DNA from: Clostridiales bacterium | GTDB taxonomy: Bacteria; Bacillota; Clostridia; Oscillospirales; CAG-382 | DNA length: 64,000 bases | Assembly: GCA_004553575.1 (NCBI GenBank) | Contig: SFLA01000002.1 | Span: forward strand, 474 to 64,473 | Direction: 5' to 3' | Shown: positions 9,835-33,318 of the stretch, in pieces | Position numbering within the stretch: position 1 is the stretch's first letter | How the letters are laid out: each line of letters opens with the position of its first letter | Program-made: the position numbers and the translations under genes | Notes under the pieces: model-generated | Databases searched by the model: none | What the model was told of the DNA's origin: nothing | The model's input: only the letters and a program-made list of their open reading frames with translations

Positions 9835-11310
9835 ATGAAAAAGAACATAGCTTTAATACTTGCGATCATTTTGCTTATGTGCGCTCTTGCCGCCTGCAAT
9901 ACCGATAACGGCGGGCACGAATCCTCCGAATCGGGCGGAAGTTTTATAGACAGCCTGACAGGTGTCGATTACGGCGGCGCAGAGGTAACCTTCCTTACCT
10001 GCGGCATACATCAGACCGCTTCCTCCGAGATACTGCCGAACAGCTATTCCGACGAAGAAAACTCGGTGCTCGAGGTGGTTAACGATGCGCTTTCCGAGCG
10101 GTATAATCTTGTCGAGGAGAAGATCGGAGTCGTTATCCGGGAGCAGTACATATACGATCCTTCCCGTCACGGCGGCACCATGATCGAGCATATACGCAAC
10201 ACGCTTGCCTCCGGCACCGACGCATATCAGGTCTGCGTTCCGGACCTGTACGACGCTGCCACGCTTTCGGCAGAGGGCCTGCTTATCGATCTTAACACCG
10301 TCCCGAATCTCGATCTTACCTCGTCCTGGTGGGATCAGTCGTTCAATTCCGAAATAACCATTGCCGGACACACCTATTTTACGATAGGCGACATAGGTCT
10401 GGTCAACAAGGATGCTACTCCCTGTATTGCCTTCAACAAGAATCTGTTTGAGGAATACGACCTTGAGAATCCGTACGATCTCGTAGACAGCGGAAGCTGG
10501 ACTATCGATAAGCTGATCGAGTTTTCAAAGCATCTGAGCAACGACCTCAATAACGACGGCGTTATCGATTACAGCGACGAATTCGGATACGGCGGACAGT
10601 ACGACGATATCTGGTGCATGTTCTACGGCTCCGGAGAGCGTCTTGCTTCTATCGGATCCGACGGATATCCGTATCTTACCGTGTATAACGAAAGATCGGT
10701 ATCCGTAGTCGATAACATTCTTAAGCTTATGCAGGACGACCTCCACTATGTGTCCGCAAACGATTACTTCGGGGTTTCGCAATACCCGGCGGAGCTCGTT
10801 ACCCAGGCATTTATAGACGGCAGGTCTCTGTTCAATTATTCCGATATAGGCGATACCGACGATTTCCGCGATATGGCCGACGACTTCGGTCTGCTTCCGA
10901 TTCCCAAATACAGCGAGGAGCAGGAGGAGTACAATACCCTTATAAACTGCTGGACCTCAAACGCCTTCTGTATTCCCTATACCGTGGAAGGGGAAACGCT
11001 TGAGATGACCGGTCTCACGCTGGAGCTTATGGGAGCCATAAGCGAGGATATCCTTGTTCATGCGTATTACGACGTCGCACTGCAGTATCAGAAGACCCGC
11101 GATGACGATACCGTGCGAATGCTCGACATTATTTTCAGCACCCGCGGCTGCGACCTCGGAATGGTTTTCCAGTGGGGCGGGCTCGACACCATGCTCCATT
11201 CCCTGATAACCTCCGAAAGCGGAGCCTTTGCATCGGTATACGAGACCTATAAGGGCAAAGCAGAGGCGGACATGAAGGAAACCGTAGATACCTACAAGAA
11301 ACTAAACTGA
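9835..11310 (+). CDS. large extracellular solute-binding lipoprotein (paralog 1)
   Basis: Signal peptide plus lipobox LAAC. 491 aa. Shares WWDQ.., FTIGDIGL, AYYDVALQYQKTRDDDTVRML blocks with 11337..12833, and the WWDQ / F(F)TIGDI / FNK blocks with 25278.. and 26900.. Confidence 0.8.
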   Translation: MKKNIALILAIILLMCALAACNTDNGGHESSESGGSFIDSLTGVDYGGAEVTFLTCGIHQTASSEILPNSYSDEENSVLEVVNDALSERYNLVEEKIGVVIREQYIYDPSRHGGTMIEHIRNTLASGTDAYQVCVPDLYDAATLSAEGLLIDLNTVPNLDLTSSWWDQSFNSEITIAGHTYFTIGDIGLVNKDATPCIAFNKNLFEEYDLENPYDLVDSGSWTIDKLIEFSKHLSNDLNNDGVIDYSDEFGYGGQYDDIWCMFYGSGERLASIGSDGYPYLTVYNERSVSVVDNILKLMQDDLHYVSANDYFGVSQYPAELVTQAFIDGRSLFNYSDIGDTDDFRDMADDFGLLPIPKYSEEQEEYNTLINCWTSNAFCIPYTVEGETLEMTGLTLELMGAISEDILVHAYYDVALQYQKTRDDDTVRMLDIIFSTRGCDLGMVFQWGGLDTMLHSLITSESGAFASVYETYKGKAEADMKETVDTYKKLN

Positions 11311-11336
11311 CGCCAAACGAAAACAGGAGGAAAAGT

Positions 11337-12833
11337 ATGAAAAAAACAATAGCATTTCTGCTTATTGCCGTTCTTGCGTGCGGAATTCTCGCCGCCTGCA
11401 ACGACGAAGGCGACCGCTCACGCGCCGATGTTTCCGAAACCAGCGGCAGCGGAAAGTATGTTGCCGATGTTCCCGACCGCGATTACGGCGGGGCTACCGT
11501 CACCTTCCTCACCTGCGGAGTCAACCAGACCGCTTCGTCCGAGATACTGTACAACGATTACGGCAGCGACGACGAGGAACAGATGATGGAGGTCGTCAAC
11601 GACGCCCTTCGCGAGCGCTACAATCAGGTGTACGAGAGCATTGGCGTAGTTATTAAGGAGCAGTACATATACGACGGGAGACGCTATAACGGCGAGATGA
11701 TAAACCATATCCGCAACGCTATCGCCGGCGGAACCGATACGTTCCAGGTCTGCGTTCCCTGCCTTTACGACTGTGCAACCCTCGCGGCCGAGGGACAGCT
11801 TATCGATCTGCTCGGAGAAGTTCCGTATCTTAACATGTCCCAGCCGTGGTGGGATCAGACCTTCAATTCCGAAATGACGATAGGCGGTTGCCTGTACTTC
11901 ACGATCGGAGATATCGGGCTTATCAACAAGGATTCAACCCCCTGCATAGCTTTTAACAAGGATCTTTTCAACGAGTATAATCTCGAAAGTCCGTACGATC
12001 TGGTCGACGACGGCAAATGGACGCTCGATAAGCTGATTGAGCTTTGCAAGAACATGAGCGTGGATCTTAACAACGACGGCGTTATCGATTACAGCGATAA
12101 ATTCGGTTACGGCGGGCAGTACGACGATATGTGGTATCTGTTCTACGGCTCGGGCGAGAGGATTGCCAGCCGGGACGCGGACGGATATCCGTATCTCACC
12201 ATGTATAACGACCGGTCGGCAACGGTTATCGATAAGATACTTGAGTTCATGCAGGACAAAGAGCATTATGTGTGTGCAAACAACTATTTCGGTGTTGTGA
12301 ACTGGCCGGCAGAGCTGGTAACCCAGGCGTTCGTAGAGGGCAGATCGCTGTTCAACCTCTCCGGTGTGGGCACGACCGATGCCTACCGTGACATGGAGGA
12401 CGATTTCGGTCTGGTGCCGATACCCAAGTTCAATGAGGAACAGGAAAACTACTACTCCATGGTAAATCCGTGGACATCCAACGCCTTCTGTATTCCGATA
12501 AGCGTTGAGGGCGACGCGCTCGAGATGACCGGAATAACCCTCGAGGTCATGGGCGCGGTAAGCAAGAATATACTTGCAACTGCGTATTACGACGTCGCAC
12601 TGCAGTATCAGAAAACCCGCGATGACGATACCGTGCGCATGCTCGAGATTATATTCAATTCCCGCGGCTGCGATCTCGGCACTATATACAAGTGGGGACT
12701 GCTTGATAATCTGCTCCACGAGCTTATAACCATGCCTCGCGGCTCGTTTGCGTCGCAGTACGAGGCAAAGTCTGCGGCGGCGCAGTCTGCAATGGAGGAG
12801 ACCATCAACTTCTACAAGTCAAACGAGAAATAA
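11337..12833 (+). CDS. large extracellular solute-binding lipoprotein (paralog 2)
   Basis: AGGAGG RBS, lipobox LAAC, 498 aa. Collinear with paralog 1 over its whole length. Confidence 0.8.
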   Translation: MKKTIAFLLIAVLACGILAACNDEGDRSRADVSETSGSGKYVADVPDRDYGGATVTFLTCGVNQTASSEILYNDYGSDDEEQMMEVVNDALRERYNQVYESIGVVIKEQYIYDGRRYNGEMINHIRNAIAGGTDTFQVCVPCLYDCATLAAEGQLIDLLGEVPYLNMSQPWWDQTFNSEMTIGGCLYFTIGDIGLINKDSTPCIAFNKDLFNEYNLESPYDLVDDGKWTLDKLIELCKNMSVDLNNDGVIDYSDKFGYGGQYDDMWYLFYGSGERIASRDADGYPYLTMYNDRSATVIDKILEFMQDKEHYVCANNYFGVVNWPAELVTQAFVEGRSLFNLSGVGTTDAYRDMEDDFGLVPIPKFNEEQENYYSMVNPWTSNAFCIPISVEGDALEMTGITLEVMGAVSKNILATAYYDVALQYQKTRDDDTVRMLEIIFNSRGCDLGTIYKWGLLDNLLHELITMPRGSFASQYEAKSAAAQSAMEETINFYKSNEK

Positions 12834-22701: not shown

Positions 22702-23283
22702 ATGGCGAAGCTGTATTTCAAGTACGGCACGATGGGCAGCTCCAAGAGCGCGCAGGCGCTTATAACCAAGTTCAATTACGAGGAGCGGGGCATGAGTGTC
22801 TGGCTTATCAAGCCCGCGATCGACACCCGCGACGGAGCAAGCATAATAAAGAGCCGTATCGGTCTTTATGCGGAGGCGGATCCGATAAATGCGGACGACG
22901 ATATATACGCCATGTACGTTGCCTCGCACCGCGGCTGCGACGTGATTATTGCCGATGAGTGCGAAATGTTTACCGAGGATAATATCGACCAGATGCGGCG
23001 GATAGTGGACGAGTTCAATCTGCCGGTTATAAATTTCGGGCTCCGCGCCGATTTCAGAACAAGGCTGTTCCCCGGCTCCAAGCGGCTGTTTGAGCTGGCG
23101 GATTCTATAACCGAGATAAAGACGGTATGCGCCTGCGGCGCCAAAGCTACCGTAAACGCCCGCATTTCGCCTGACGGAAAAGTCGTTACCGAGGGAGCGC
23201 AGATAATGCTCGGGGGCAACGAGTGCTATACCGCGATGTGTCACAGATGTTATGTGAATGAGCAGAAGAAGGGGAACGAATAA
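22702..23283 (+). CDS. tdk: thymidine kinase
   Basis: Track ORF trimmed to ATG 22702, after GGGAGG. E. coli-type TK blocks: LYFKYGTMGSSKS, ADECEMF, GLRADFR, C-terminal zinc-site cysteines CACG..CHRC. Confidence 0.9.
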   Translation: MAKLYFKYGTMGSSKSAQALITKFNYEERGMSVWLIKPAIDTRDGASIIKSRIGLYAEADPINADDDIYAMYVASHRGCDVIIADECEMFTEDNIDQMRRIVDEFNLPVINFGLRADFRTRLFPGSKRLFELADSITEIKTVCACGAKATVNARISPDGKVVTEGAQIMLGGNECYTAMCHRCYVNEQKKGNE

Positions 23284-25193
23284 TGAGCGTAACGAAATAT
23301 CTTTTCGATTCACTGAGCAATGCCATGCCGCTCTGCCCGCATCTCGGAGGAGCGTATTCCGTCAATTCCTACGATATCCTTCAGGGCAGGATAAATTCCA
23401 GCCGGTTTTCGAGCCTGTCCGAGGATATGCGGATATCGTCGGACACCGAGGTAGTCATAGTCGCCAAATCGGTTAATACTTCTGTCGGCGGAGGTATATA
23501 CAGCTCCTCATCGACGTCTGCGCTGCGCGGCCTGTATTTTATCCCCGCGATGCTCGGCACCGACGGAAGGCTTTCTCTGATTCAGTCCAAACTTCCGTAT
23601 TTTGAAGAAGAATTCCTCGGCGGAGAGTACTGCTTCGGCGACCGAGCCGCCGCTCACGGCTATCTCGCCAACAACACCCGGCTTATATCGGCAGTCTATG
23701 CCAACGGAAGCTGGGAGGCGTATATAAAGCTCGCCGTCGCTTATTTCGAGGAGGTGTGCCGAGTTTCATATAACGAGTGCTACCTCTTTAACCGCGCCGA
23801 CGAGACACGGTTCATTCTCGACCGGAACTGCTACATACTTCCCGCCGGCAGGGTGACTCATATAAAGCCCATGCTGCGCCTGTATGCGCGGATATTCAAG
23901 GCGGGAAATCCCAATAAGCTGTACGGCGATTTCTGCGAAGGGAACGGCGAGAACGTTTCGTTTATAACTTTAACCCCGCAGGAGAAGCAGGATTTTATCC
24001 GCGAGATAGCGGTAAGCTGGATAGTCAACAATGCTCTTAAGCGCGCACCGTCAATGCCGATCGTTGTCGGTACCGACATGTCGCCCTCGCTGCGTCTGGC
24101 GGAGGGAGGAAACGACCTGTTCGGCTACTGGACCGATATACGCAGCAGCGTCCAGTCGCTCCCGGCGATAGATACGACGGGAATACCGACGGACAGCGTG
24201 TTTTCCGCCTGTGCCCGCCGCTACGGAGTGACCTTTTCCTCCGCAGTCGGATGCGTCGAGCGTATTCACCGCGAGCTTACCTCGCTGTCTCTGCTGAACG
24301 ACCGGGTTCTTACCGAGATAAAGAAAAATCCCGGACTTATGTCCTTCCCGTGTTCGGACGGAAAGAGGCAGACCTTCGCAGCCTCGCAGACATTGCTTAA
24401 ATGCGAGGAGCTCGAGCGTACCCTGCGTGAGAGAAGAGTGGAATGGGAGATATTCCTTCAGAAGCTTCCCGCCCGTATAAAGCTGTTCGGCGGGCTTAAG
24501 TCCGTGCGCGAGGAGCGCGAGGAGCTGTTTGCCGAATTCATGGGCGACAAGGATTCCTTCCTGCGTCCCGATATGACCCCGCAGCAGATTCTTTCGGAGT
24601 TCACGGTTATGGCGGAGAAAAACGCCGCTCTTATGAAGGATATGAAGGCAAAGAAAGCGCTGCTCGACATTATCGGCGAATACAGCGAGTTCGGTATCGA
24701 CTTCTTCCGTGCCGACCCCGACGGAACCGACCCGGATTTTGTCTGCACCGTTCAGGATATGACCGCCCTTATAAAGAAGCGCGTTATGCCTACGATGTTC
24801 TGGCTGGCCGTGCATTATTACGAATGCGTATGGGCGTCCGACCCTGTCGGGAATCCGTATACGCTGGCTCCCGTAATTTTTGCGCCCTGCGTTAAGATTG
24901 CCGATCAGTTCGATACGTTCGATTCGATACCCCTGCTGATAATCGATCATGCGGACAGCATTTCGCCCGAATATGCCGGCGGTTTGTTCGCGCTGGCAAA
25001 AAGCGCAATACTTATATGCGACGGCGACGGAAGCCGGCCGGTGCATACCGTGCCGCGCGGGACAGACCCTGTGCTCGCAATACGCGGCGGAGCGATAGAG
25101 TATGCCGACGAATTCGAAAAGATAAAAAAAGCCGGTCTTTCGGTGTCTTCCTGCTCGCTTGCGGACTGCTTCAGGGTATCCGATCCGACTTGA
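23283..25193 (+). CDS. uncharacterised 636-aa protein with degenerate SF1-helicase-like motifs
   Basis: ATG 23283 overlaps the tdk TAA (TAATG). Long ORF with no competing recognisable gene. Motif relics LTPQEKQDFI...MPIVVGTDMSPS and LLIIDHADSISPE...AILICDGDG. See findings. Confidence 0.7.
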   Translation: MSVTKYLFDSLSNAMPLCPHLGGAYSVNSYDILQGRINSSRFSSLSEDMRISSDTEVVIVAKSVNTSVGGGIYSSSSTSALRGLYFIPAMLGTDGRLSLIQSKLPYFEEEFLGGEYCFGDRAAAHGYLANNTRLISAVYANGSWEAYIKLAVAYFEEVCRVSYNECYLFNRADETRFILDRNCYILPAGRVTHIKPMLRLYARIFKAGNPNKLYGDFCEGNGENVSFITLTPQEKQDFIREIAVSWIVNNALKRAPSMPIVVGTDMSPSLRLAEGGNDLFGYWTDIRSSVQSLPAIDTTGIPTDSVFSACARRYGVTFSSAVGCVERIHRELTSLSLLNDRVLTEIKKNPGLMSFPCSDGKRQTFAASQTLLKCEELERTLRERRVEWEIFLQKLPARIKLFGGLKSVREEREELFAEFMGDKDSFLRPDMTPQQILSEFTVMAEKNAALMKDMKAKKALLDIIGEYSEFGIDFFRADPDGTDPDFVCTVQDMTALIKKRVMPTMFWLAVHYYECVWASDPVGNPYTLAPVIFAPCVKIADQFDTFDSIPLLIIDHADSISPEYAGGLFALAKSAILICDGDGSRPVHTVPRGTDPVLAIRGGAIEYADEFEKIKKAGLSVSSCSLADCFRVSDPT

Positions 25194-25218
25194 CACGGAG
25201 CAATATCTGTGTTAAAAT
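25190..25218 (+). promoter_or_regulatory. sigma-A type promoter for the second SBP pair
   Basis: TTGACA (25190-25195, overlapping the stop of the 636-aa gene), 17 nt, TAAAAT (25213-25218). Confidence 0.55.
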
Positions 25219-25277
25219 ACACCCATCTGTATTCTAAACCGTTTGTTTAGCCATTTTTAATTGAAAGGAATGCGCAA

Positions 25278-26777
25278 ATGAAAAAACACATCAGACTGTC
25301 AGCCCTTATTCTGTGCCTGCTGATGATCGCCGGTGCTTTTGCTGCCTGCCAGCCCACATCCGACACATCGGATGTCAGCGGAAATACCAGTGAAAACGGC
25401 ACCGAGGGCGGCCGCTATGTTGCGGATCTGCCTGAATTCAAGTGGGATACCTCCAACGAAACCTACGCCAAGTTCAAAGTCTGCGTATACAGCAACGAGC
25501 AGCAGACCACCTATTTTTCCGAGGAGATCGGATACGGCATGTATACCACCACCGATGAGGTTATAACCGATGCGGTAATGAATCGCAACAACTATGTAAC
25601 CCAGCTCACCGGCGTGGAAGTGGTCGCATGTGCCGTACCGGATGTACTTCCCGCGGTACAGAACGACCTTGTCGGCGGAACCCAGCTTTACGATATGGCA
25701 ATGCCGTTCATGCCTGCCGCCGCAACTCTGGCACAGGAAGGATCGCTGTATGCTCTCAACGACGAAAAGTTCGCCGATTATATCGATCTTTCCAAGCCGT
25801 GGTGGGATCAGAACGCAAACGCCTCGCTTTCCGTAGACGGCAAGCTGTTCTTCACGATCGGCGATATTTCGATAATGCAGAAGATAGTCAGTACAGCCAT
25901 CACCTTCAACAAGGAAATGTACGCGACTTATTTCCCCGGCGAAGATTCTCTTTATGATGTAGTAAAGGACGGCGACTGGACGCTTGACCTTATGGTAAGA
26001 CTTTCCAAGGCTGTCACCCAGGATAACGGCGACGGAGTATGGGACAGCAACGACCAGTGGGGACTTTCCTCCTCCTATGCCGACTCCAATATGTTCTATC
26101 TCGCCTCCGGCCAGAGTATCTGCTCAAAGGATTCGGACGATATACCCGTGTTCTCGATGGACAACAACGCAAGCGTGAACATAATCCAGAACATACTCAC
26201 CAACCTCCAGCTTCCGAACACCTGGTGCATCCACGCCCAGCAGTTCGATGCGGCGAACAGATGGGTAATTTCGCTGGATATTTTCGGCGAGGGCAGATGT
26301 CTGTTCAGAACCAGCGCTTTCTCCGCCATCAAGAAGCTCCGCGCCTATGAAGAGGGTGTGGAATTCGGTATAATCCCGATGCCCAAGATGACCGCAGAGC
26401 AGGAGAATTATTACACTCCGTGCTCCGCAAGGTATTCATACGCAGTCGTTATACCCAACAATGTTGCCGACGCGGAATTTTCGGCTTATATGACCGAGCT
26501 GCTTTGCTGCGAGGGAAAGAACTATATAGCAGACGCGTATTACGAGACCACTCTTAAATCGAGAGACGCCCGTGACGACGAGTCCGAGGAGATGCTCGAT
26601 CTCATATTCAGCAATGTCGTGTATGATGTCGGATATATATATAACTTCGGCAGTGCATCCAACTTGCTCGAGAATATGATGAGCATAAACTCCACCGATA
26701 TCGCCTCCCAGCTCGAGACCATAACCCCCACGGTAGAAGCTGCTATCGAGGAGACGATCGAGAATTTCAGAGACTGA
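25278..26777 (+). CDS. large extracellular solute-binding lipoprotein (paralog 3)
   Basis: Lipobox FAAC, 499 aa. Collinear with 26900..28405 (e.g. GRYVADLPEFKWDTSNETY, AYYETTLKSRDARDDESEEMLDLIF, IEETIENFRD end). Confidence 0.8.
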   Translation: MKKHIRLSALILCLLMIAGAFAACQPTSDTSDVSGNTSENGTEGGRYVADLPEFKWDTSNETYAKFKVCVYSNEQQTTYFSEEIGYGMYTTTDEVITDAVMNRNNYVTQLTGVEVVACAVPDVLPAVQNDLVGGTQLYDMAMPFMPAAATLAQEGSLYALNDEKFADYIDLSKPWWDQNANASLSVDGKLFFTIGDISIMQKIVSTAITFNKEMYATYFPGEDSLYDVVKDGDWTLDLMVRLSKAVTQDNGDGVWDSNDQWGLSSSYADSNMFYLASGQSICSKDSDDIPVFSMDNNASVNIIQNILTNLQLPNTWCIHAQQFDAANRWVISLDIFGEGRCLFRTSAFSAIKKLRAYEEGVEFGIIPMPKMTAEQENYYTPCSARYSYAVVIPNNVADAEFSAYMTELLCCEGKNYIADAYYETTLKSRDARDDESEEMLDLIFSNVVYDVGYIYNFGSASNLLENMMSINSTDIASQLETITPTVEAAIEETIENFRD

Positions 26778-26796
26778 TGTACGAATAAACTGCTCA

Positions 26797-26830
26797 GGCG
26801 GCGGAACCTCGGTTCCACCGCCCGTGCCTT
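26797..26830 (+). terminator. possible weak terminator between paralogs 3 and 4
   Basis: GGCGGcGGAAC ctcg GTTCCaCCGCC with one mismatch. The T-run begins only 6 nt after the stem. Confidence 0.4.
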
Positions 26831-26899
26831 TTCCGCGGTTTTACCGTATCTGTATACTTTTCCGCAAAGTGGCGGAACGCAATAATTACGGAGGAAAAA

Positions 26900-28405
26900 A
26901 TGAAAAAGCTTACCATTATTATGTTGTGTCTGCTGCTGACAGCCGGCTGTATGCTGGTGTCCTGCAACGGCGATAACGGCGATGTCTCACAGACGGCGAG
27001 CGATACCTCGACCGTATCGATCGATGGATACGACCCTGAAAGCGGTCGTTATGTCGCCGATCTTCCCGATTTCAAGTGGGACGCAACCAACGAGACCTAT
27101 TCGACCTTCAAGGTTTGCGTTTACAGCAATGTCATAGAGACCACTTATTTCTCAGAGGATATCGGATACGATCTGTATACGACCACAGACGAAGTTATTA
27201 ACGACGCTGTAAGAGAGCGCAATAACCTCGTGCTCGAAAAGACCGGCGTTACCGTGACCGCCTGCCCGGTCGACAAAGTTTTTACCGCAGTACAGAACGA
27301 CATTGTCGGCGGAACCCGTCTTTACGACGCAGCCATGCCGTTCATTGGCGACTGCGTAAAGCTCGCACAGGAGGGTCAGCTTCTGGCGCTCAATGACGAA
27401 ATGTTTGCCGATTATATCGATCTTTCGATGCCGTGGTGGGATCAGAAAGCGTCCGAGGCATTTTCGGTGTCTGACGTGTTGTTCTTCACGACCGGCGATA
27501 TAACCATAATGAATAAGATCGACACCTGGGCTATCACTTTTAATAAAGAGATGTACTCGACCCTTTTCCCGGGAGAAGATTCGCTTTACGATATCGTTAA
27601 GCAGGGCAAGTGGACCTACGATAAGCTTATAAGCATGGCAAAGACCGCCACCGTCGATAACGGCGACGGAGTTTGGGATTATAAGGATCAGTGGGGACTT
27701 TCCTCCGCATACGGCGATCCGATCGCTTATTATCTTGCTGCCGGTCAGTCGCTCTGCTCCAAGAACGCCGACGATCTCCCGTATCTTTCTATCGGCAGCG
27801 ACGCTTCCTTAAGGCTCGCTCAGGACATTCTCCAGGAGTTCTCGGTGAATAATTCATGGCGCATATACGCCCAGAGACTCGGAACTCCCAACATCTGGGT
27901 TACCGCTCTCGATATATTCGGTGAAGGCAGAGCGCTGTTCAGAACCAGCGTCTTTTCCGCCATCAAGAAGCTCCGCAATTACGATAACGGCATTGAGTTC
28001 GGTATAGTGCCGATGCCCAAGGGCAGCGAGGAGCAGGAGTCTTATCTTTCTCCCACCACCGGCGGTTACGGTATCGTAATACCCACCAGCGCTGCCGACC
28101 CCGAATTCTCCGCCTATATGATCGAGCTTATCGCGTCCGAGGCGAAGAACACGCTTACCCCCGCTTACTACGAGACCACCCTTAAATCGAGAGACGCCCG
28201 TGACGACGAATCCGAGGAAATGCTCGATCTGATATTCGGAAATCTTAACTACGATATAGGTCAGATCTATGATTTCGGCGGAGTCGCCTCGATGTTCTAC
28301 ACTCTCGCCAGTTCCGACAGAAGCGATATAGCCTCTTCACTGGAACAGATACAGGGTACCATTGAAGCCAAGATAGAAGAGACCATAGAGAATTTCAGAG
28401 ACTGA
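26900..28405 (+). CDS. large extracellular solute-binding lipoprotein (paralog 4)
   Basis: GGAGGA RBS, lipobox LVSC, 501 aa. Confidence 0.8.
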   Translation: MKKLTIIMLCLLLTAGCMLVSCNGDNGDVSQTASDTSTVSIDGYDPESGRYVADLPDFKWDATNETYSTFKVCVYSNVIETTYFSEDIGYDLYTTTDEVINDAVRERNNLVLEKTGVTVTACPVDKVFTAVQNDIVGGTRLYDAAMPFIGDCVKLAQEGQLLALNDEMFADYIDLSMPWWDQKASEAFSVSDVLFFTTGDITIMNKIDTWAITFNKEMYSTLFPGEDSLYDIVKQGKWTYDKLISMAKTATVDNGDGVWDYKDQWGLSSAYGDPIAYYLAAGQSLCSKNADDLPYLSIGSDASLRLAQDILQEFSVNNSWRIYAQRLGTPNIWVTALDIFGEGRALFRTSVFSAIKKLRNYDNGIEFGIVPMPKGSEEQESYLSPTTGGYGIVIPTSAADPEFSAYMIELIASEAKNTLTPAYYETTLKSRDARDDESEEMLDLIFGNLNYDIGQIYDFGGVASMFYTLASSDRSDIASSLEQIQGTIEAKIEETIENFRD

Positions 28406-28631: not shown

Positions 28632-29642
28632 ATGAAGTTTTTAAGGCGGACGTTTTTTGTATTGATCTGTCTGGCGCTTGTGTTCGCGGTTACGGCTGCG
28701 CCCGGAGTGTCGGCGGAACGAATGAAGCTTATTCCGGGAGGAATGAGCTTCGGAGTTAAGTTTTTCACGGACGGAGCCGTGGTTGTCGGTATCACCGGAG
28801 TCGAAACAAACGCGGGGCTGGTCTGCCCCGCATCGGATTCGGGGATATCGGTGCGTGACGTGATAACCGCCGTGAACGGTGAAAAGCTCGCTTCGGCCGA
28901 GGATCTTATCGAAGCGATACGAGGCGGCAACGGCAGCGAGCTTAAGCTGTCGGTAACGGATACCGACGGAAACCTGCGCGACGTCACGGTTAAACCCGCA
29001 AAGGGCACCGACGGTGTTTACCGTATAGGCGTCTGGGTAAGGGATTCCACGGCGGGCATCGGAACGGTTACGTTTATCAGCGCCGAAAACGGCTTCTTCG
29101 GCGGGCTCGGCCACGCGATATGCGACGTCGATACCGGTATAATACTGCCGGTCGGAAAAGCATATGTCGTCGATGTCGATATAACCTCGATCGTAAAAGG
29201 CAGGGAAAAGACTCCGGGGGAGCTTAAAGGCACCTTCGGTACCGCGGTGAAGGGCGAGATAATCACGAACTGTGAAGTCGGAGTTTTCGGCACTTACACC
29301 GATCCTCCCGAATCACTGCGCGAGCCGATGGAAGTCGGAAAGGCGAGCGAGCTGATGGCGGGTGATGCCACCGTCCTTTGCGCGGTCGACGGCACGGTGA
29401 AGGAATACGGAATCGAGATAGTCAAAATCTATAAGGATTCGGGGAACACAAAGAACTTCCTTATAGAGGTGACGGATCCCGAGCTGCTCAAGCTTACCGG
29501 AGGAATCGTTCAGGGTATGTCGGGCAGTCCGATAATTCAAAACGGCAGAATAGTGGGAGCTGTGACCCACGTGCTTGTTAACAACCACACGCGGGGATAC
29601 GGTATCCACATCGAGAATATGCTGTCGGGCTCATCGCAATAA
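28632..29642 (+). CDS. spoIVB: SpoIVB peptidase (S55), stage IV sporulation protein B
   Basis: N-terminal TM, PDZ-like region, GIGTVTFI, catalytic-region blocks GGLGHAICD and QGMSGSPI. Immediately upstream of spo0A, as in Bacillus. Confidence 0.9.
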   Translation: MKFLRRTFFVLICLALVFAVTAAPGVSAERMKLIPGGMSFGVKFFTDGAVVVGITGVETNAGLVCPASDSGISVRDVITAVNGEKLASAEDLIEAIRGGNGSELKLSVTDTDGNLRDVTVKPAKGTDGVYRIGVWVRDSTAGIGTVTFISAENGFFGGLGHAICDVDTGIILPVGKAYVVDVDITSIVKGREKTPGELKGTFGTAVKGEIITNCEVGVFGTYTDPPESLREPMEVGKASELMAGDATVLCAVDGTVKEYGIEIVKIYKDSGNTKNFLIEVTDPELLKLTGGIVQGMSGSPIIQNGRIVGAVTHVLVNNHTRGYGIHIENMLSGSSQ

Positions 29643-29697: not shown

Positions 29698-29737
29698 ACG
29701 CCTTCGCGGAACAAACCGCGGAGGCGTTGTGTTATTT
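29698..29737 (+). terminator. intrinsic terminator after spoIVB
   Basis: ACGCCTtCGCGG (29698-29709) pairs with CCGCGgAGGCGT (29716-29727), followed by TGTGTTATTT. Confidence 0.7.
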
Positions 29738-29888
29738 CAAAGTATTTACCTGAACTCGATACAGCCTGTTATACATAACGCGGCTTTTATAAGCGCGGCG
29801 GAGGTGCCGTGCCGGCGGTAATCCGCGTCGGAAATTTCCGTGCGGGTGTCCGCTCCTCTGCACATCAGGCGGTTGTTTTGGCAGTATA

Positions 29889-29895
29889 TGTCGAA
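29889..29895 (+). promoter_or_regulatory. consensus Spo0A box (TGTCGAA)
   Basis: Exact TGTCGAA lies 134 nt upstream of the spo0A ATG. Confidence 0.5.
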
Positions 29896-29920
29896 TGACG
29901 GTTGTTTATGTCACAAAAAA

Positions 29921-29972
29921 TGCCAAAAAATATATATTTTTTGCCAAAATACTATTGCCAAAAAATGCCAAA
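29921..29972 (+). repeat. four direct TGCCAAA heptamers
   Basis: TGCCAAA at 29921, 29942, 29956 and 29966, in an A/T-rich context. The last two overlap the -35 element and spacer of the spo0A promoter. Confidence 0.9.
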
Positions 29973-29983
29973 TATGTTATAAT
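29955..29983 (+). promoter_or_regulatory. sigma-A type promoter of spo0A
   Basis: TTGCCA (29955-29960), 17 nt, TATAAT (29978-29983). Confidence 0.6.
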
Positions 29984-30028: not shown

Positions 30029-30811
30029 ATGGAAAAGCAGCAAAACAGGGCAAGAGTTTTCATCGCGGACGGATCGGCGGATTTCAGGCTGCAGTGCGCG
30101 CAGTATCTGCGCCGACAGGGGGTTGAGGTTGTCGGCGAAGCGGCGGACGGCAGGGAGGCGTTTGCGCGGATAGCCCGTGCGAAGCCGAATGTCGTGATAA
30201 GCGAACTGTATCTAAGCAAGCTCGACGGAGCGGGTCTGATAAGGGAGTGCAAGAAGCAGCTTGGAGATTCCTTTCCCGCGTTCATAATGATGTCCTCCTT
30301 CAATGCGCAGGAGCTGTTCGAGGAGTGCTGCGAATCCGGCGCGTCTTACTGTATGATAAAGCCGCCCGATTTTGTAATGCTCACCGAGAGAGTCCGGCGG
30401 CTTGCCGACCGCACCCGCCGACGTATCGGCATGCGCATGCCTCCGGACGAGACCGATCTGGAAGCACAGGTTACGAAAATAATACATCAGATAGGCGTTC
30501 CGGCGCATATAAAGGGGTATCAGTACCTGCGGACGGCAATAATAATGACGATAAACGATAACGACATAATCAATTCGGTGACAAAGGTGCTGTATCCGTC
30601 GGTTGCCAAGCAGTACGGGACAACCTCCTCGCGTGTGGAGCGTGCCATACGCCATGCAATAGAGGTCGCATGGGACCGCGGAGATCTTGACGTGCTCAAT
30701 TCGTTTTTCGGATACACCGTGCAGAATTCCCGCGGAAAGCCGACCAATTCCGAATTTATAGCAATGATTGCCGATAATCTGAGGCTTCGCAACAAAGCGC
30801 TGACAGTCTGA
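30029..30811 (+). CDS. spo0A: sporulation master regulator Spo0A (atypical receiver domain)
   Basis: The C-terminal domain is nearly invariant versus Bacillus Spo0A ([45 protein letters not shown]). The N-terminal receiver domain has DG instead of DD, and Glu at the acceptor position. Confidence 0.92.
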
Positions 30812-30834: not shown

Positions 30835-30877
30835 CGCCGGGGTAAAAGGGCAATATCCCTTTCCCCGGCGGTTTTTT
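30835..30877 (+). terminator. intrinsic terminator after spo0A
   Basis: CCGCCGGGGtAAAAGGG caatat CCCTTTCCCCGGCGG, followed by TTTTTT. Confidence 0.85.
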
Positions 30878-30979
30878 GCCGTTTTCTTTCCATTCGTGCC
30901 CGTGTACGCCGCAAGTCGCGGCGGCATAAAATAGAACGGGAAGTATATTTACCCGAAGCAACTCATGGGAGATGAAAAA

Positions 30980-31219
30980 ATGAACGAATCAATTACGCTT
31001 AAGGAGCTTCGCCCCGGGTGCCGCGCAGTGGTAAGCGGGATGTCGTCATCCGGCAGTATGCGCCGGAGACTTATGGATATAGGGCTTACGGAAAACACGA
31101 CGGTGGAGTGTGTCGGCAGAAGCGCGGCGGGCGATCCGTCGGCATATCTTATACGGGGTGCGGTTATCGCAATCCGCTCCGAGGACAGCGAAAAAATAAC
31201 GGTCAGGATAAGAAGGTGA
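30980..31219 (+). CDS. feoA: ferrous iron transport protein A
   Basis: ATG 30980 follows GGGAGA. FeoA SH3-like blocks (LKELRPG, RRLMDIGL, AIRSEDSEKI). Confidence 0.8.
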   Translation: MNESITLKELRPGCRAVVSGMSSSGSMRRRLMDIGLTENTTVECVGRSAAGDPSAYLIRGAVIAIRSEDSEKITVRIRR

Positions 31220-33318
31220 AGCTGGTGGAGTATACAGGAGCTCCGCTTGCACGGAGAGCAGGAGCAAAAGGGGTGATAGCGCTGGCCGGGAACCCGAATG
31301 TTGGCAAAAGCACCGTGTTCAACGGGCTCACCGGAATGAAGCAGCACACCGGAAACTGGCCCGGTAAGACGGTAAGCGGCGCTTCCGGCGTTTGCGGCGA
31401 CCTTATTCTGGTAGATCTTCCCGGCACATATTCGCTTTTTGCACGCTCCGCAGAGGAGGATGTAGCGCGTGAATACATCTGCTTCGGAGATTCGGATGCG
31501 GTTGCTGTGGTATGCGATGCGGTATGCCTCGAACGCAACCTGAATCTGGTGCTCCAGATTGCCGAGACGGCAAAACGTCTTATTGTCTGCGTTAATCTTA
31601 TGGACGAGGCAAAGAAAAAGCGTATCGGCATAGATCTGGCTCTGCTGTCCGACCGGCTCGGTGTGCCGGTGGTCGGCACTGCCGCCCGCGACCGCCGCAG
31701 TCTGCGGTCGCTCAGGGAGGAAATGGAAAAATGCGCTTCGGGAGGGATTCCGCGAAGCGGCATACGGATTTCTTACCCTCCGGTAATCGAATCGGCGTCA
31801 AAAACGGTCGAGGACGCGCTGTCCGACCGTTGCTCCGGTTTAAGTCCGCGCTGGGTAAGTCTGCGCCTGCTGGAGGGTGATCCGGAGCTGACGGCGGGAA
31901 TAAACGAGCATTTGGGTTACGATATTACTTCGGTGCCGGAGGTGGCGGAAGCGCTCGCTTCGGCAGTCGGACTGCTCAATGAAAACGGGCTGAGCCGCGA
32001 CCGTGTGCGGGATTCGCTTGCGTCGTCGGTAGTGGCGGAGGCGGAGCGTATATGCGAAGGAGTCGTCACCTGCGGCGACCCGCATACAGAGTCTCGCGAC
32101 AGGCGTATAGACCGTATTCTTACCGGAAAGTTAACGGGATATCCGATAATGCTGTTTCTGCTTGCCGTTATATTCTGGATAACAATAACCGGCGCAAATT
32201 ACCCGTCCGAGCTTCTTTCGGATCTGTTCGGCAGGCTCGAAAAGCAGATCACACGGCTGTTCTTTGCTCTGGGGTCGCCCGAATGGCTGCACGGCGTGCT
32301 TGTGCTAGGCGGGTACCGGGTGCTGGCATGGGTGGTATCCGTAATGCTGCCGCCGATGGCGGTGTTTTTCCCGCTGTTCACTCTGCTCGAGGATCTCGGG
32401 TATCTGCCGCGTGTGGCGTATAATCTCGACCGCCCGTTCAAATGCTGCGGCTCCTGCGGCAAGCAGGCACTGACAATGTGCATGGGATTCGGCTGCAACG
32501 CAGTAGGTGTTACCGGCTGCCGGATAATCGATTCCCCGCGTGAGCGTCTGCTCGCGGTGATAACCAACAGCTTCGTGCCCTGCAACGGCAGATTCCCGAC
32601 TTTGATTGCACTGATATCCATGTTTTTCGTAGGTACGGCTGCAGGCGGACTTTCCTCCGTGTTGTCGGCGCTTGCGCTTACCGGGGTGATACTGCTCGGA
32701 ATAACGGCGACCTTTGCCGTCACCGGACTGCTTTCGGGAACGCTGCTCAAAGGGGTGCCTTCCTCGTTCACGCTTGAGCTTCCGCCGTACCGAAGACCTC
32801 AGATAGGCAGGATTATCGTACGGTCGGTGCTTGACAGAACATTGTTTGTGCTCGGCAGAGCCGCCGCCGTCGCGGCGCCTGCGGGAATAATTATCTGGCT
32901 GACCTCCAATATAACTGTCGGCGGCGAAAGTATACTGAGCATATGCGCCGGGTTTCTTAATCCGCTGGGCACGCTTATGGGGCTTGACGGGGTTATACTC
33001 ATTGCATTTATACTCGGGTTTCCGGCAAACGAGATAGTACTGCCCATAATCATAATGGCTTATACCGCTCAGGGCAGTCTGGCCGGCATGGAGGGATTGG
33101 ACAGCGTGCGGAGTCTGCTTGCAGAAAACGGCTGGAGCTGGATAACCGCGGCGTGCACGGTGTTGTTTTCGCTGTTCCACTGGCCCTGCTCTACGACCCT
33201 TCTGACAATTAAGAAAGAGACCGGAAGCCTGAAATGGACGGCGATTGCCGCCGCGGTACCTACCGCAATCGGAATCGCGTCGTGTATTGTCTTTGCCGCA
33301 GTTGCCCGGCTGTTCTGA
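31216..33318 (+). CDS. feoB: ferrous iron transport protein B
   Basis: GTG 31216 overlaps the feoA TGA (GTGA). G-domain GNPNVGKST, DLPG. Large polytopic C-terminal domain. Confidence 0.9.
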   Translation: MKLVEYTGAPLARRAGAKGVIALAGNPNVGKSTVFNGLTGMKQHTGNWPGKTVSGASGVCGDLILVDLPGTYSLFARSAEEDVAREYICFGDSDAVAVVCDAVCLERNLNLVLQIAETAKRLIVCVNLMDEAKKKRIGIDLALLSDRLGVPVVGTAARDRRSLRSLREEMEKCASGGIPRSGIRISYPPVIESASKTVEDALSDRCSGLSPRWVSLRLLEGDPELTAGINEHLGYDITSVPEVAEALASAVGLLNENGLSRDRVRDSLASSVVAEAERICEGVVTCGDPHTESRDRRIDRILTGKLTGYPIMLFLLAVIFWITITGANYPSELLSDLFGRLEKQITRLFFALGSPEWLHGVLVLGGYRVLAWVVSVMLPPMAVFFPLFTLLEDLGYLPRVAYNLDRPFKCCGSCGKQALTMCMGFGCNAVGVTGCRIIDSPRERLLAVITNSFVPCNGRFPTLIALISMFFVGTAAGGLSSVLSALALTGVILLGITATFAVTGLLSGTLLKGVPSSFTLELPPYRRPQIGRIIVRSVLDRTLFVLGRAAAVAAPAGIIIWLTSNITVGGESILSICAGFLNPLGTLMGLDGVILIAFILGFPANEIVLPIIIMAYTAQGSLAGMEGLDSVRSLLAENGWSWITAACTVLFSLFHWPCSTTLLTIKKETGSLKWTAIAAAVPTAIGIASCIVFAAVARLF

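Follow-up and report, generated by a model that had tools for sequence, protein, structure and literature searches.

The window analyzed here is a stretch of 64,000 nucleotides of contig SFLA01000002.1 from a Clostridiales bacterium, and the gene under study is its spo0A (coordinates of all features in Table 1). The open reading frame (ORF) is a genuine Spo0A orthologue. Its score with TIGR02875, the Spo0A equivalog model of NCBIfam, was 268.9 bits at a cut-off of 200, and the match covered positions 3 to 261 of the 262 in the model. Pfam recognized a receiver, Response_reg (PF00072, residues 10-122, 53.9 bits, cut-off 30.2), followed by Spo0A_C (PF08769, residues 148-251, 156.4 bits). For the DNA-binding domain phmmer returned 1lq1 and 1fc3 with E-values of 1.7e-48 and 4.1e-48, respectively, and Foldseek aligned it to structures of Spo0A DNA-binding domains with template-modeling (TM) scores of 0.88-0.95. 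The 15-residue recognition stretch of the region that binds the 0A box is identical to that of 1LQ1 and 1FC3. Identity of the domain is 90-100% inside the clade of nearest relatives and 66% with Bacillus subtilis, in line with the near-invariance which a first reading of the DNA by eye (the sequence-only reading) had noted. The upstream neighbor spoIVB encodes a sporulation signaling protease and reached 320.8 bits with TIGR02860 (cut-off 305.25); that it is intact had been surmised correctly. The window thus displays the classical order spoIVB-spo0A, and the position next to spoIVB is that of the family. In relatives spoIVB also lies 5' of spo0A on the same strand, with variable inserts between the two genes. 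The host is an uncultured, chiefly pig-gut Clostridium; the 23 contigs with an identical protein that were examined stem mostly from pig-gut metagenomes.

The phosphorylation site of the receiver was examined by alignment to solved structures. CheY-like competence requires a pair of acidic residues (DD1 and DD2), a phospho-acceptor Asp at the end of β3 (D), a conserved Thr or Ser (T) and a conserved Lys (K). HMMER pairwise alignments were made with the Spo0A receivers 9phz_E from B. subtilis and 1dz3/1qmp from Geobacillus stearothermophilus, an entry showing the phosphorylated Asp. The 14-residue acceptor segment of the query stood opposite DVLVLDIIMPHLDG, and IADGSADF stood opposite VADDNREL. 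The place of Asp56 of B. subtilis Spo0A is taken by Glu59; DD1 is kept as Asp14, while DD2 is Gly15. T and K are present as Ser89 and Lys111. A MAFFT alignment of 120 close homologues gave D14, G15, E59, S89/S90 and K111 in the same register as HMMER, and the register was unchanged with 150 distant representatives.

An AlphaFold2 model built from 33 sequences had predicted local distance difference test (pLDDT) values per 10-residue block of 87-96 for residues 11-90 and 77-89 for residues 91-130. Strands and helices were predicted in the canonical (βα)5 order of a CheY-like receiver. In the model Glu59 is the last residue of β3 (55-59), Asp14 follows directly on β1 (9-13), Ser89 closes β4 (84-89) and Lys111 comes just after β5 (107-110). 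Foldseek found TM scores of about 0.9 to the receivers of Spo0A (5wq0, 1qmp), Spo0F and CheY. Thus the three claims of the sequence-only reading about the pocket, i.e. Glu at the acceptor position, loss of the second Asp of the acidic pair next to a retained first one, and preservation of Thr/Ser and Lys, were all reproduced, and neither the alignments nor the model placed an Asp at the acceptor position.

The pocket departs from the canonical one at two further sites, D+4, where Pro is replaced by Ser63, and K-3, where the aromatic switch residue is replaced by Cys108. Judged by its residues (PF00072 recognized, D changed to Glu, DD2 changed to Gly), the domain qualifies as an aspartate-less or pseudo-receiver by the definitions of PMC4395418 and PMC12632262. 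Both sources name Glu as the commonest replacement of D; in aspartate-less receivers the first acidic residue and the Lys are usually kept and hold the pocket, and the second acidic residue is usually lost (PMC4395418). The protein is thus a Spo0A orthologue that lacks one defining feature of its family, the conserved Asp that becomes phosphorylated (Asp56 in B. subtilis). Several positions that line the pocket (11, 16, 74, 110, 116 and 120) distinguish Glu-type from Asp-type proteins in more than a single Glu clade, and positions 88 and 113 do so in the clade of the query. Cysteines C23, C100 and C108 were invariant in 33 aligned clade members, and the query has additional cysteines at 73, 74 and 101. 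By analogy to the aspartate-less RitR, redox control of such a cysteine-rich receiver in an anaerobe is conceivable.

The substitution is real. An exact copy of the protein occurs in 205 indexed blocks of the assembly collection, and the nearest clade (73-99% identical) has Glu in 13 of 13 sequences. The codon is GAA in the window and in the loci L005 and L006 and GAG in L087-L090, while neighboring clades with Asp use GAT or GAC. With so many occurrences and two codons in use for Glu, GAA and GAG, Glu59 is not an error. Nonsynonymous (dN) and synonymous (dS) divergence was estimated according to Nei-Gojobori among the species of the Glu clade where dS was estimable; dS ranged from 0.6 to saturation (>2). 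The receiver had a dN of 0.02-0.16 and a dN/dS of 0.02-0.09, the DNA-binding domain a dN/dS of 0.006-0.04, i.e. constraint is weaker on the receiver than on the DNA-binding domain. The ratios indicate that the receiver is clearly still functional. Owing to strong purifying selection spo0A cannot be regarded as a decaying gene, as had been argued from the DNA-binding domain.

The sequence-only reading had treated the altered pocket as a trait of one organism. Its inference at the level of the sequence stands, yet the confinement to one organism does not; the pattern is clade-wide, with Glu fixed in the nearest clade and recurrent outside. Relatives were grouped by DD2 in a set of 201 sequences with a residue at this position. 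In the 67 with an acidic DD2 (mostly 'ADEN', from metagenome-assembled genomes (MAGs) of Oscillospiraceae type) D, T/S and K were all kept in 61, and the acceptor was Asp in 66. The other 134 have S, G, C, A or N at DD2, and only 17 of these kept D, T/S and K together: T was Ala in 95, D was Glu in 23 and Gly in 1, and K was M, V or I in 5. The acceptor position was acidic in 133 of the 134, which indicates a structural role for the carboxylate. This combination looks like the signature of a pocket freed from catalysis yet under structural constraint. In a neighbor-joining (NJ) tree the DD2-less sequences grouped together, and Fitch parsimony on the near-clade NJ tree required at least 6 acceptor changes. 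DD2 has been lost across an entire family-level clade of uncultured gut and environmental Clostridia, and the change from Asp to Glu is recurrent, inside as well as outside this clade. Of the two changes, that at DD2 is the earlier and more widespread one and Glu59 a later step; the site had probably ceased to catalyze phosphotransfer before Glu59 arose. Residue 58, directly before the acceptor, is Ser in the query (30200-30202). Ser is nearly invariant here (120/134) only in the DD2-less clade, and the position is hydrophobic and variable where the acidic pair is intact.

More distant relatives were collected by scanning 1.84 billion cluster representatives with HMMER, from which the best 150 matches were taken. 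The 112 full-length sequences analyzed comprised 110 representatives after clustering at 50% identity, the query and the B. subtilis reference; 38 canonical representatives served as an internal control of the alignment. Among these best matches 21 of 112 lacked the acceptor Asp (13 Glu including the query, 3 Gly, 2 Ser and one each of Asn, Tyr and Cys), an acidic DD2 was missing in 55 and the Lys in 16, and Fitch parsimony required at least 20 acceptor changes. These counts measure recurrence and not prevalence because the set was ranked by similarity to the query and because clustering at 50% identity over-represents fast-evolving lineages. Eight representatives, seven of Glu-type and one of Gly-type, all scored above the Spo0A equivalog cut-off with 212-291 bits. 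Database names of proteins of this kind include Spo0A of Angelakisella sp., Candidatus Scatomorpha stercorigallinarum and Oscillospiraceae MAGs. One of them, P0164, represents a cluster of 806 members and combines an intact DD pair with Glu; its gene lies directly 3' of spoIVB with gerA close by.

Other alterations of the same domain were seen as well. In P0113, P0115, P0117, P0118, P0120 and L013 the acceptor Asp is kept and the conserved Lys is replaced by M, V, I or T; the acidic pair of this sub-clade is Glu-Gly or Glu-Ser in the five sequences other than L013, which is truncated. In P0080 the acceptor is replaced by Gly. The Lys-less sub-clade and P0080 are further independent routes of degeneration of the same pocket. 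P0122, P0123, P0124, P0134 and P0236, with 394-454 amino acids, have 3-4 tandem Spo0A_C domains and no receiver according to Pfam; they appear to be covalently multimerized, receiver-less DNA binders of the Spo0A type.

Table 1. Features of the spoIVB-spo0A locus; positions refer to the window.
Feature	Position	Strand	Description and basis
spoIVB, sporulation signaling protease	28632..29642	+	upstream neighbor of spo0A; TIGR02860, Pfam Peptidase_S55 and PDZ
Terminator-like hairpin in the spoIVB/spo0A interval	29698..29727	+	
TGCCAAA(A)/TTTGGCA repeat cluster, candidate operator	29876..29973	.	surrounds and includes the -35 element
Perfect 0A-box heptamer TGTCGAA	29889..29895	+	about 140 nt 5' of the start codon
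Sigma-70-type promoter-like site of spo0A	29955..29983	+	TTGCCA, 17-nt spacer, TG-extended TATAAT; scan match 11/12
spo0A coding sequence	30029..30811	+	260 aa and stop; ORF list, TIGR02875, Pfam Response_reg and Spo0A_C
Predicted pseudo-receiver domain, (βα)5 fold	30050..30403	+	residues 8-125; PF00072, AlphaFold2, Foldseek
Codons 14-15, GAC GGA (Asp14-Gly15)	30068..30073	+	'DD' pair, metal-binding second Asp replaced; sequence, alignments to 9phz_E/1dz3
Codon 59, GAA (Glu59)	30203..30205	+	phospho-acceptor position, Asp56 in B. subtilis Spo0A; alignments, model
Codon 89 (Ser89)	30293..30295	+	conserved Thr/Ser position, end of β4
Codon 111 (Lys111)	30359..30361	+	conserved Lys, after β5
Spo0A_C, DNA-binding and transcription-activation domain	30470..30781	+	residues 148-251; PF08769, phmmer, Foldseek
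Terminator-like hairpin 3' of spo0A	30866..30883	+	

The region 5' of spo0A carries a promoter-like site, both hexamers of which are invariant in six species of the Glu clade with saturated synonymous sites; about 130 bp of promoter region are kept across these species. Because terminator-like hairpins flank the gene on both sides and a promoter-like site precedes it, spo0A is a transcription unit of its own. The promoter is interwoven with a cluster of repeats, in which the families D1, D2 and I1-I6 were distinguished. TGCCAAAA was found in 6 copies in the window versus 2.0 expected, 4 of the 6 inside the cluster. As TTGGCAAAA / TTGCCAAAA the cluster is conserved with 4-6 repeats in the upstream 200 nt of L005, L006, L087, L089 and L090; a TGCCAAA(A) / TTGGCAAAA cluster was also observed at L008. 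Furthermore, the boxes TGTCGCA and TGTCGTA, 0A-like with one mismatch, are conserved 5' of spo0A in relatives. Since TG(C/G)CAAA is one position apart from the relaxed 0A consensus TGNCGAA, the repeats could serve Spo0A as weak sites of autoregulation or another regulator as its operator. The conserved promoter and repeats are consistent with control by abundance of Spo0A, short of demonstrating it. Reading the TGGCA repeats as sigma-54 elements was rejected by eye, as there is no TTGC at the proper spacing.

In five loci of the Glu clade spoIVB is intact with the GLGH and GMSGSP motifs kept and, at unsaturated dS, with a dN/dS of about 0.08-0.15. Contigs of the same species contain a SpoVT-like gene about 7 kb past the end of the window (L091, 18349-18891, minus strand); its product combines an AbrB-type N-terminus with Pfam SpoVT_C and matches TIGR02851 over the full length with 197 bits, below the cut-off of 235.9. 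CotH genes lie close to spo0A in relatives. The intact and selected spoIVB, the SpoVT-like gene and CotH in relatives favor a living sporulation program, as far as gene content can tell. Pfam and NCBIfam annotation of the 64-kb window detected neither sporulation kinases nor Spo0F or Spo0B, and no sporulation genes besides spoIVB and spo0A.

What the altered pocket means for phosphorylation can be gauged from canonical receivers. There DD1 binds the metal via water. DD2 is a direct ligand of the catalytic Mg2+, and the carboxylate of Asp is the nucleophile (PMC12632262). In Clostridioides difficile Spo0A the exchanges D10A, D11A, D56A, S86A and K108A each cripple sporulation and D56A abolishes the phospho-form; phosphorylation is said to regulate every Spo0A studied (bioRxiv 10.1101/2022.02.07.479450). 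Devoid of the metal site and with the carboxylate displaced by one methylene group, the receiver encoded in the window would have lost His-to-Asp phosphotransfer, from which we infer that this Spo0A is not under the control of kinases or a phosphorelay. In relatives without DD2 the residues D, T and K have decayed while purifying selection overall is strong, which suggests a function independent of Asp phosphorylation. The retained network of Asp14, Glu59, Ser89 and Lys111 would stabilize the fold of the pocket, probably in a state resembling the active one, toward which Glu59 may bias the domain. The receiver would then act as a dimerization or regulatory module. The decision on activation would be relocated, most likely to transcription of spo0A given the conserved promoter with its TGCCAAAA repeats and 0A-like boxes, and protein partners would provide additional or alternative control. 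We favor as probable the view that the gene encodes a functional Spo0A orthologue whose receiver has turned into a pseudo-receiver and whose control has passed to expression or partners. Only tentatively do we extend this view to the organisms, in that endospore formation would operate in a widespread gut lineage, and recurrently in other Oscillospiraceae-like lineages, with Spo0A uncoupled from histidine kinases and phosphorelays and entry set by spo0A transcription or by a partner.

Several points weigh against these views. That the receiver would not be phosphorylated is a prediction from the logic of conserved residues. According to Green et al. 1991 (via PMC4395418), the exchange of Asp for Glu alone does not render Spo0A of B. 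subtilis constitutive, so that constitutive activity of the Glu-type protein is not assured. The perfect 0A box upstream of the gene is no evidence by itself because TGTCGAA occurs in the window at the expected frequency (9 found, 8.9 expected), and an enrichment of 0A boxes was discarded as support. The NJ trees behind the counts of acceptor changes are rough, and the ranking of the distant set by similarity to an already atypical query biases its prevalence figures upward. Finally, the type strain of Angelakisella massiliensis was described as non-spore-forming (PMC5294735), and Angelakisella MAGs carry Glu-type Spo0A; therefore some such lineages may not sporulate.

The last point leads to an alternative in which the lineage is asporogenous and Spo0A is kept as a phosphorylation-independent global regulator with no role in the initiation of sporulation. 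In a survey of 118 Spo0A-encoding genomes 40 belonged to non-spore-formers (bioRxiv 10.1101/2022.02.25.481979), and the scarcity of sporulation genes in the window besides spoIVB and spo0A agrees with this explanation as does the case of Angelakisella. Yet the catalytic motifs and the low dN/dS of spoIVB in the Glu clade argue against it, and we know of no role of this gene outside sporulation. The SpoVT-like gene in the same species, CotH near spo0A in relatives and gerA close to the Glu-type spo0A of P0164 point in the same direction. Thus we consider an asporogenous lineage unlikely. The genome might on the other hand harbor a second, canonical spo0A that takes the phosphoryl signal, while the copy with Glu59 acts as a modulator or heterodimer partner. 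There are precedents, since 10 of the 118 genomes had two spo0A genes and one had three (bioRxiv 10.1101/2022.02.25.481979), and Streptomyces development is controlled by heterodimers of the atypical regulators BldM and WhiI (PMC4125116). However, it is the Glu59 copy that occupies the ancestral spoIVB-spo0A locus, a canonical DD pair was present in none of the 120 closest database homologues, and no second spo0A was found within the window, which makes a division of labor between paralogues rather improbable.

Phosphorylation could also still switch the protein, either at Glu59 as an acyl phosphate or at an alternative residue such as Ser58, with a histidine or a Ser/Thr kinase as the donor. 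The Ser at D-1 that is near-invariant only in the DD2-less clade would fit, and the residues that usually bind the phosphoryl group, Ser89 and Lys111, are still present. In CheY D57N phosphorylation can occur on the adjacent Ser56. Yet the direct metal ligand is absent with Gly15 in its place. Sister sequences without DD2 mostly have Ala for T and have lost K in some cases, which argues that phosphoryl chemistry at the pocket is no longer selected. Glu is phosphorylatable in principle, but its phosphorylation lacks a known bacterial signaling example (PMC4395418). We regard a residual phosphorylation switch as very unlikely. Nothing was found in favor of an artifact, be it an error in sequencing or assembly or a misalignment masking a real Asp. 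It is refuted by the 205 blocks of independent assemblies and by the conservation of Glu across species with synonymous codon turnover, and three independent alignment methods and the structure model gave one and the same register, so that the chance of an artifact is negligible.

By ancestry the protein is a Spo0A, whereas its mechanistic kin are the aspartate-less and pseudo-receiver regulators such as ChxR, RitR, HP1043 and the plant pseudo-response regulators (PRRs). With canonical Spo0A of B. subtilis, G. stearothermophilus (1QMP/1DZ3) and C. difficile it shares the two-domain architecture, the recognition stretch and the position next to spoIVB; it differs by Glu59 for Asp56, Gly15 for Asp11 and the exchanges at D+4 (Pro to Ser) and K-3 (aromatic to Cys). 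ChxR of Chlamydia trachomatis, an atypical member of the OmpR/PhoB family, likewise carries Glu in place of the acceptor Asp; it needs no phosphorylation for activity and is constitutively dimeric (PMC3960148, PMC4395418), but its output domain and biology are different. Because the Glu of ChxR is dispensable for its activity, Glu59 need not be the activating feature here. The query also fits the published signature of aspartate-less or pseudo-receivers like RitR, FrzS, HP1043, the plant PRRs and fungal Rim15 with its Glu, except that the pseudo-receiver is here attached to the master regulator of endospore formation. BldM and WhiI resemble it as atypical orphan regulators of a sporulation-type program that lack conventional phosphorylation (PMC4125116), yet they belong to the unrelated NarL/FixJ family, serve exospore formation and work by heterodimerization of two regulators. 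The phosphomimics NtrC D54E and OmpR D55E share the chemistry of Asp to Glu at the acceptor, and such engineered exchanges confer partial constitutive activity in some regulators (PMC4395418 and its refs 31-33). In contrast to the remodeled pocket of the window, these proteins and the D56 mutants of B. subtilis Spo0A are laboratory point mutants with otherwise intact pockets. No description of natural Spo0A pseudo-receivers was found in full-text searches, which did not extend to subscription literature; the surveys PMC4395418 and PMC12632262 do not mention a Spo0A output domain, and the 2025 review of pseudo-receivers lists no Spo0A in its supplements.

Phosphorylation of Spo0A is the textbook gateway to endospore formation, and reviews extend it to all Spo0A proteins studied. 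A phosphorylation-independent Spo0A in spore-forming Clostridia would overturn this universality among endospore formers. Predictions of sporulation from MAGs that score spo0A as present would conceal a mechanistic split, and the sporulation kinases sought in such bacteria may not exist. The altered Spo0A was found in many abundant gut lineages, which offer many independent natural replicates for studies of pseudo-receiver regulation. Because the proteins are small and soluble and their DNA target is known, the question is directly testable.

The surroundings of spo0A were inspected for a conserved adjacent partner gene. This candidate was rejected: the interval ORFs of Glu-clade relatives, with 156, 196, 320, 329 and 757 amino acids and one of them with faint tetratricopeptide repeat (TPR) matches, are mutually unrelated and absent from the window. 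In L087-L090 the spoIVB-spo0A interval is a hotspot of variable insertions, while both genes are adjacent in the window. The inserts include CotH, a pyroglutamyl peptidase, a 757-aa repeat protein, a small HTH_3 regulator, a Fic/Phd toxin-antitoxin pair and small, unrelated ORFs. Iron-related genes lie 3' of spo0A throughout the clade, possibly by coincidence, i.e. feoA-feoB in the window (30965-33318) and fur plus rubrerythrin in L087-L090 (about 10870-11800). Large paralogous lipoprotein-like ORFs of about 490-640 amino acids occupy 23283-28405, 5' of spoIVB, and 9835-12833 of the window; their family matches are weak or absent, with one weak match to SBP_bac_1.

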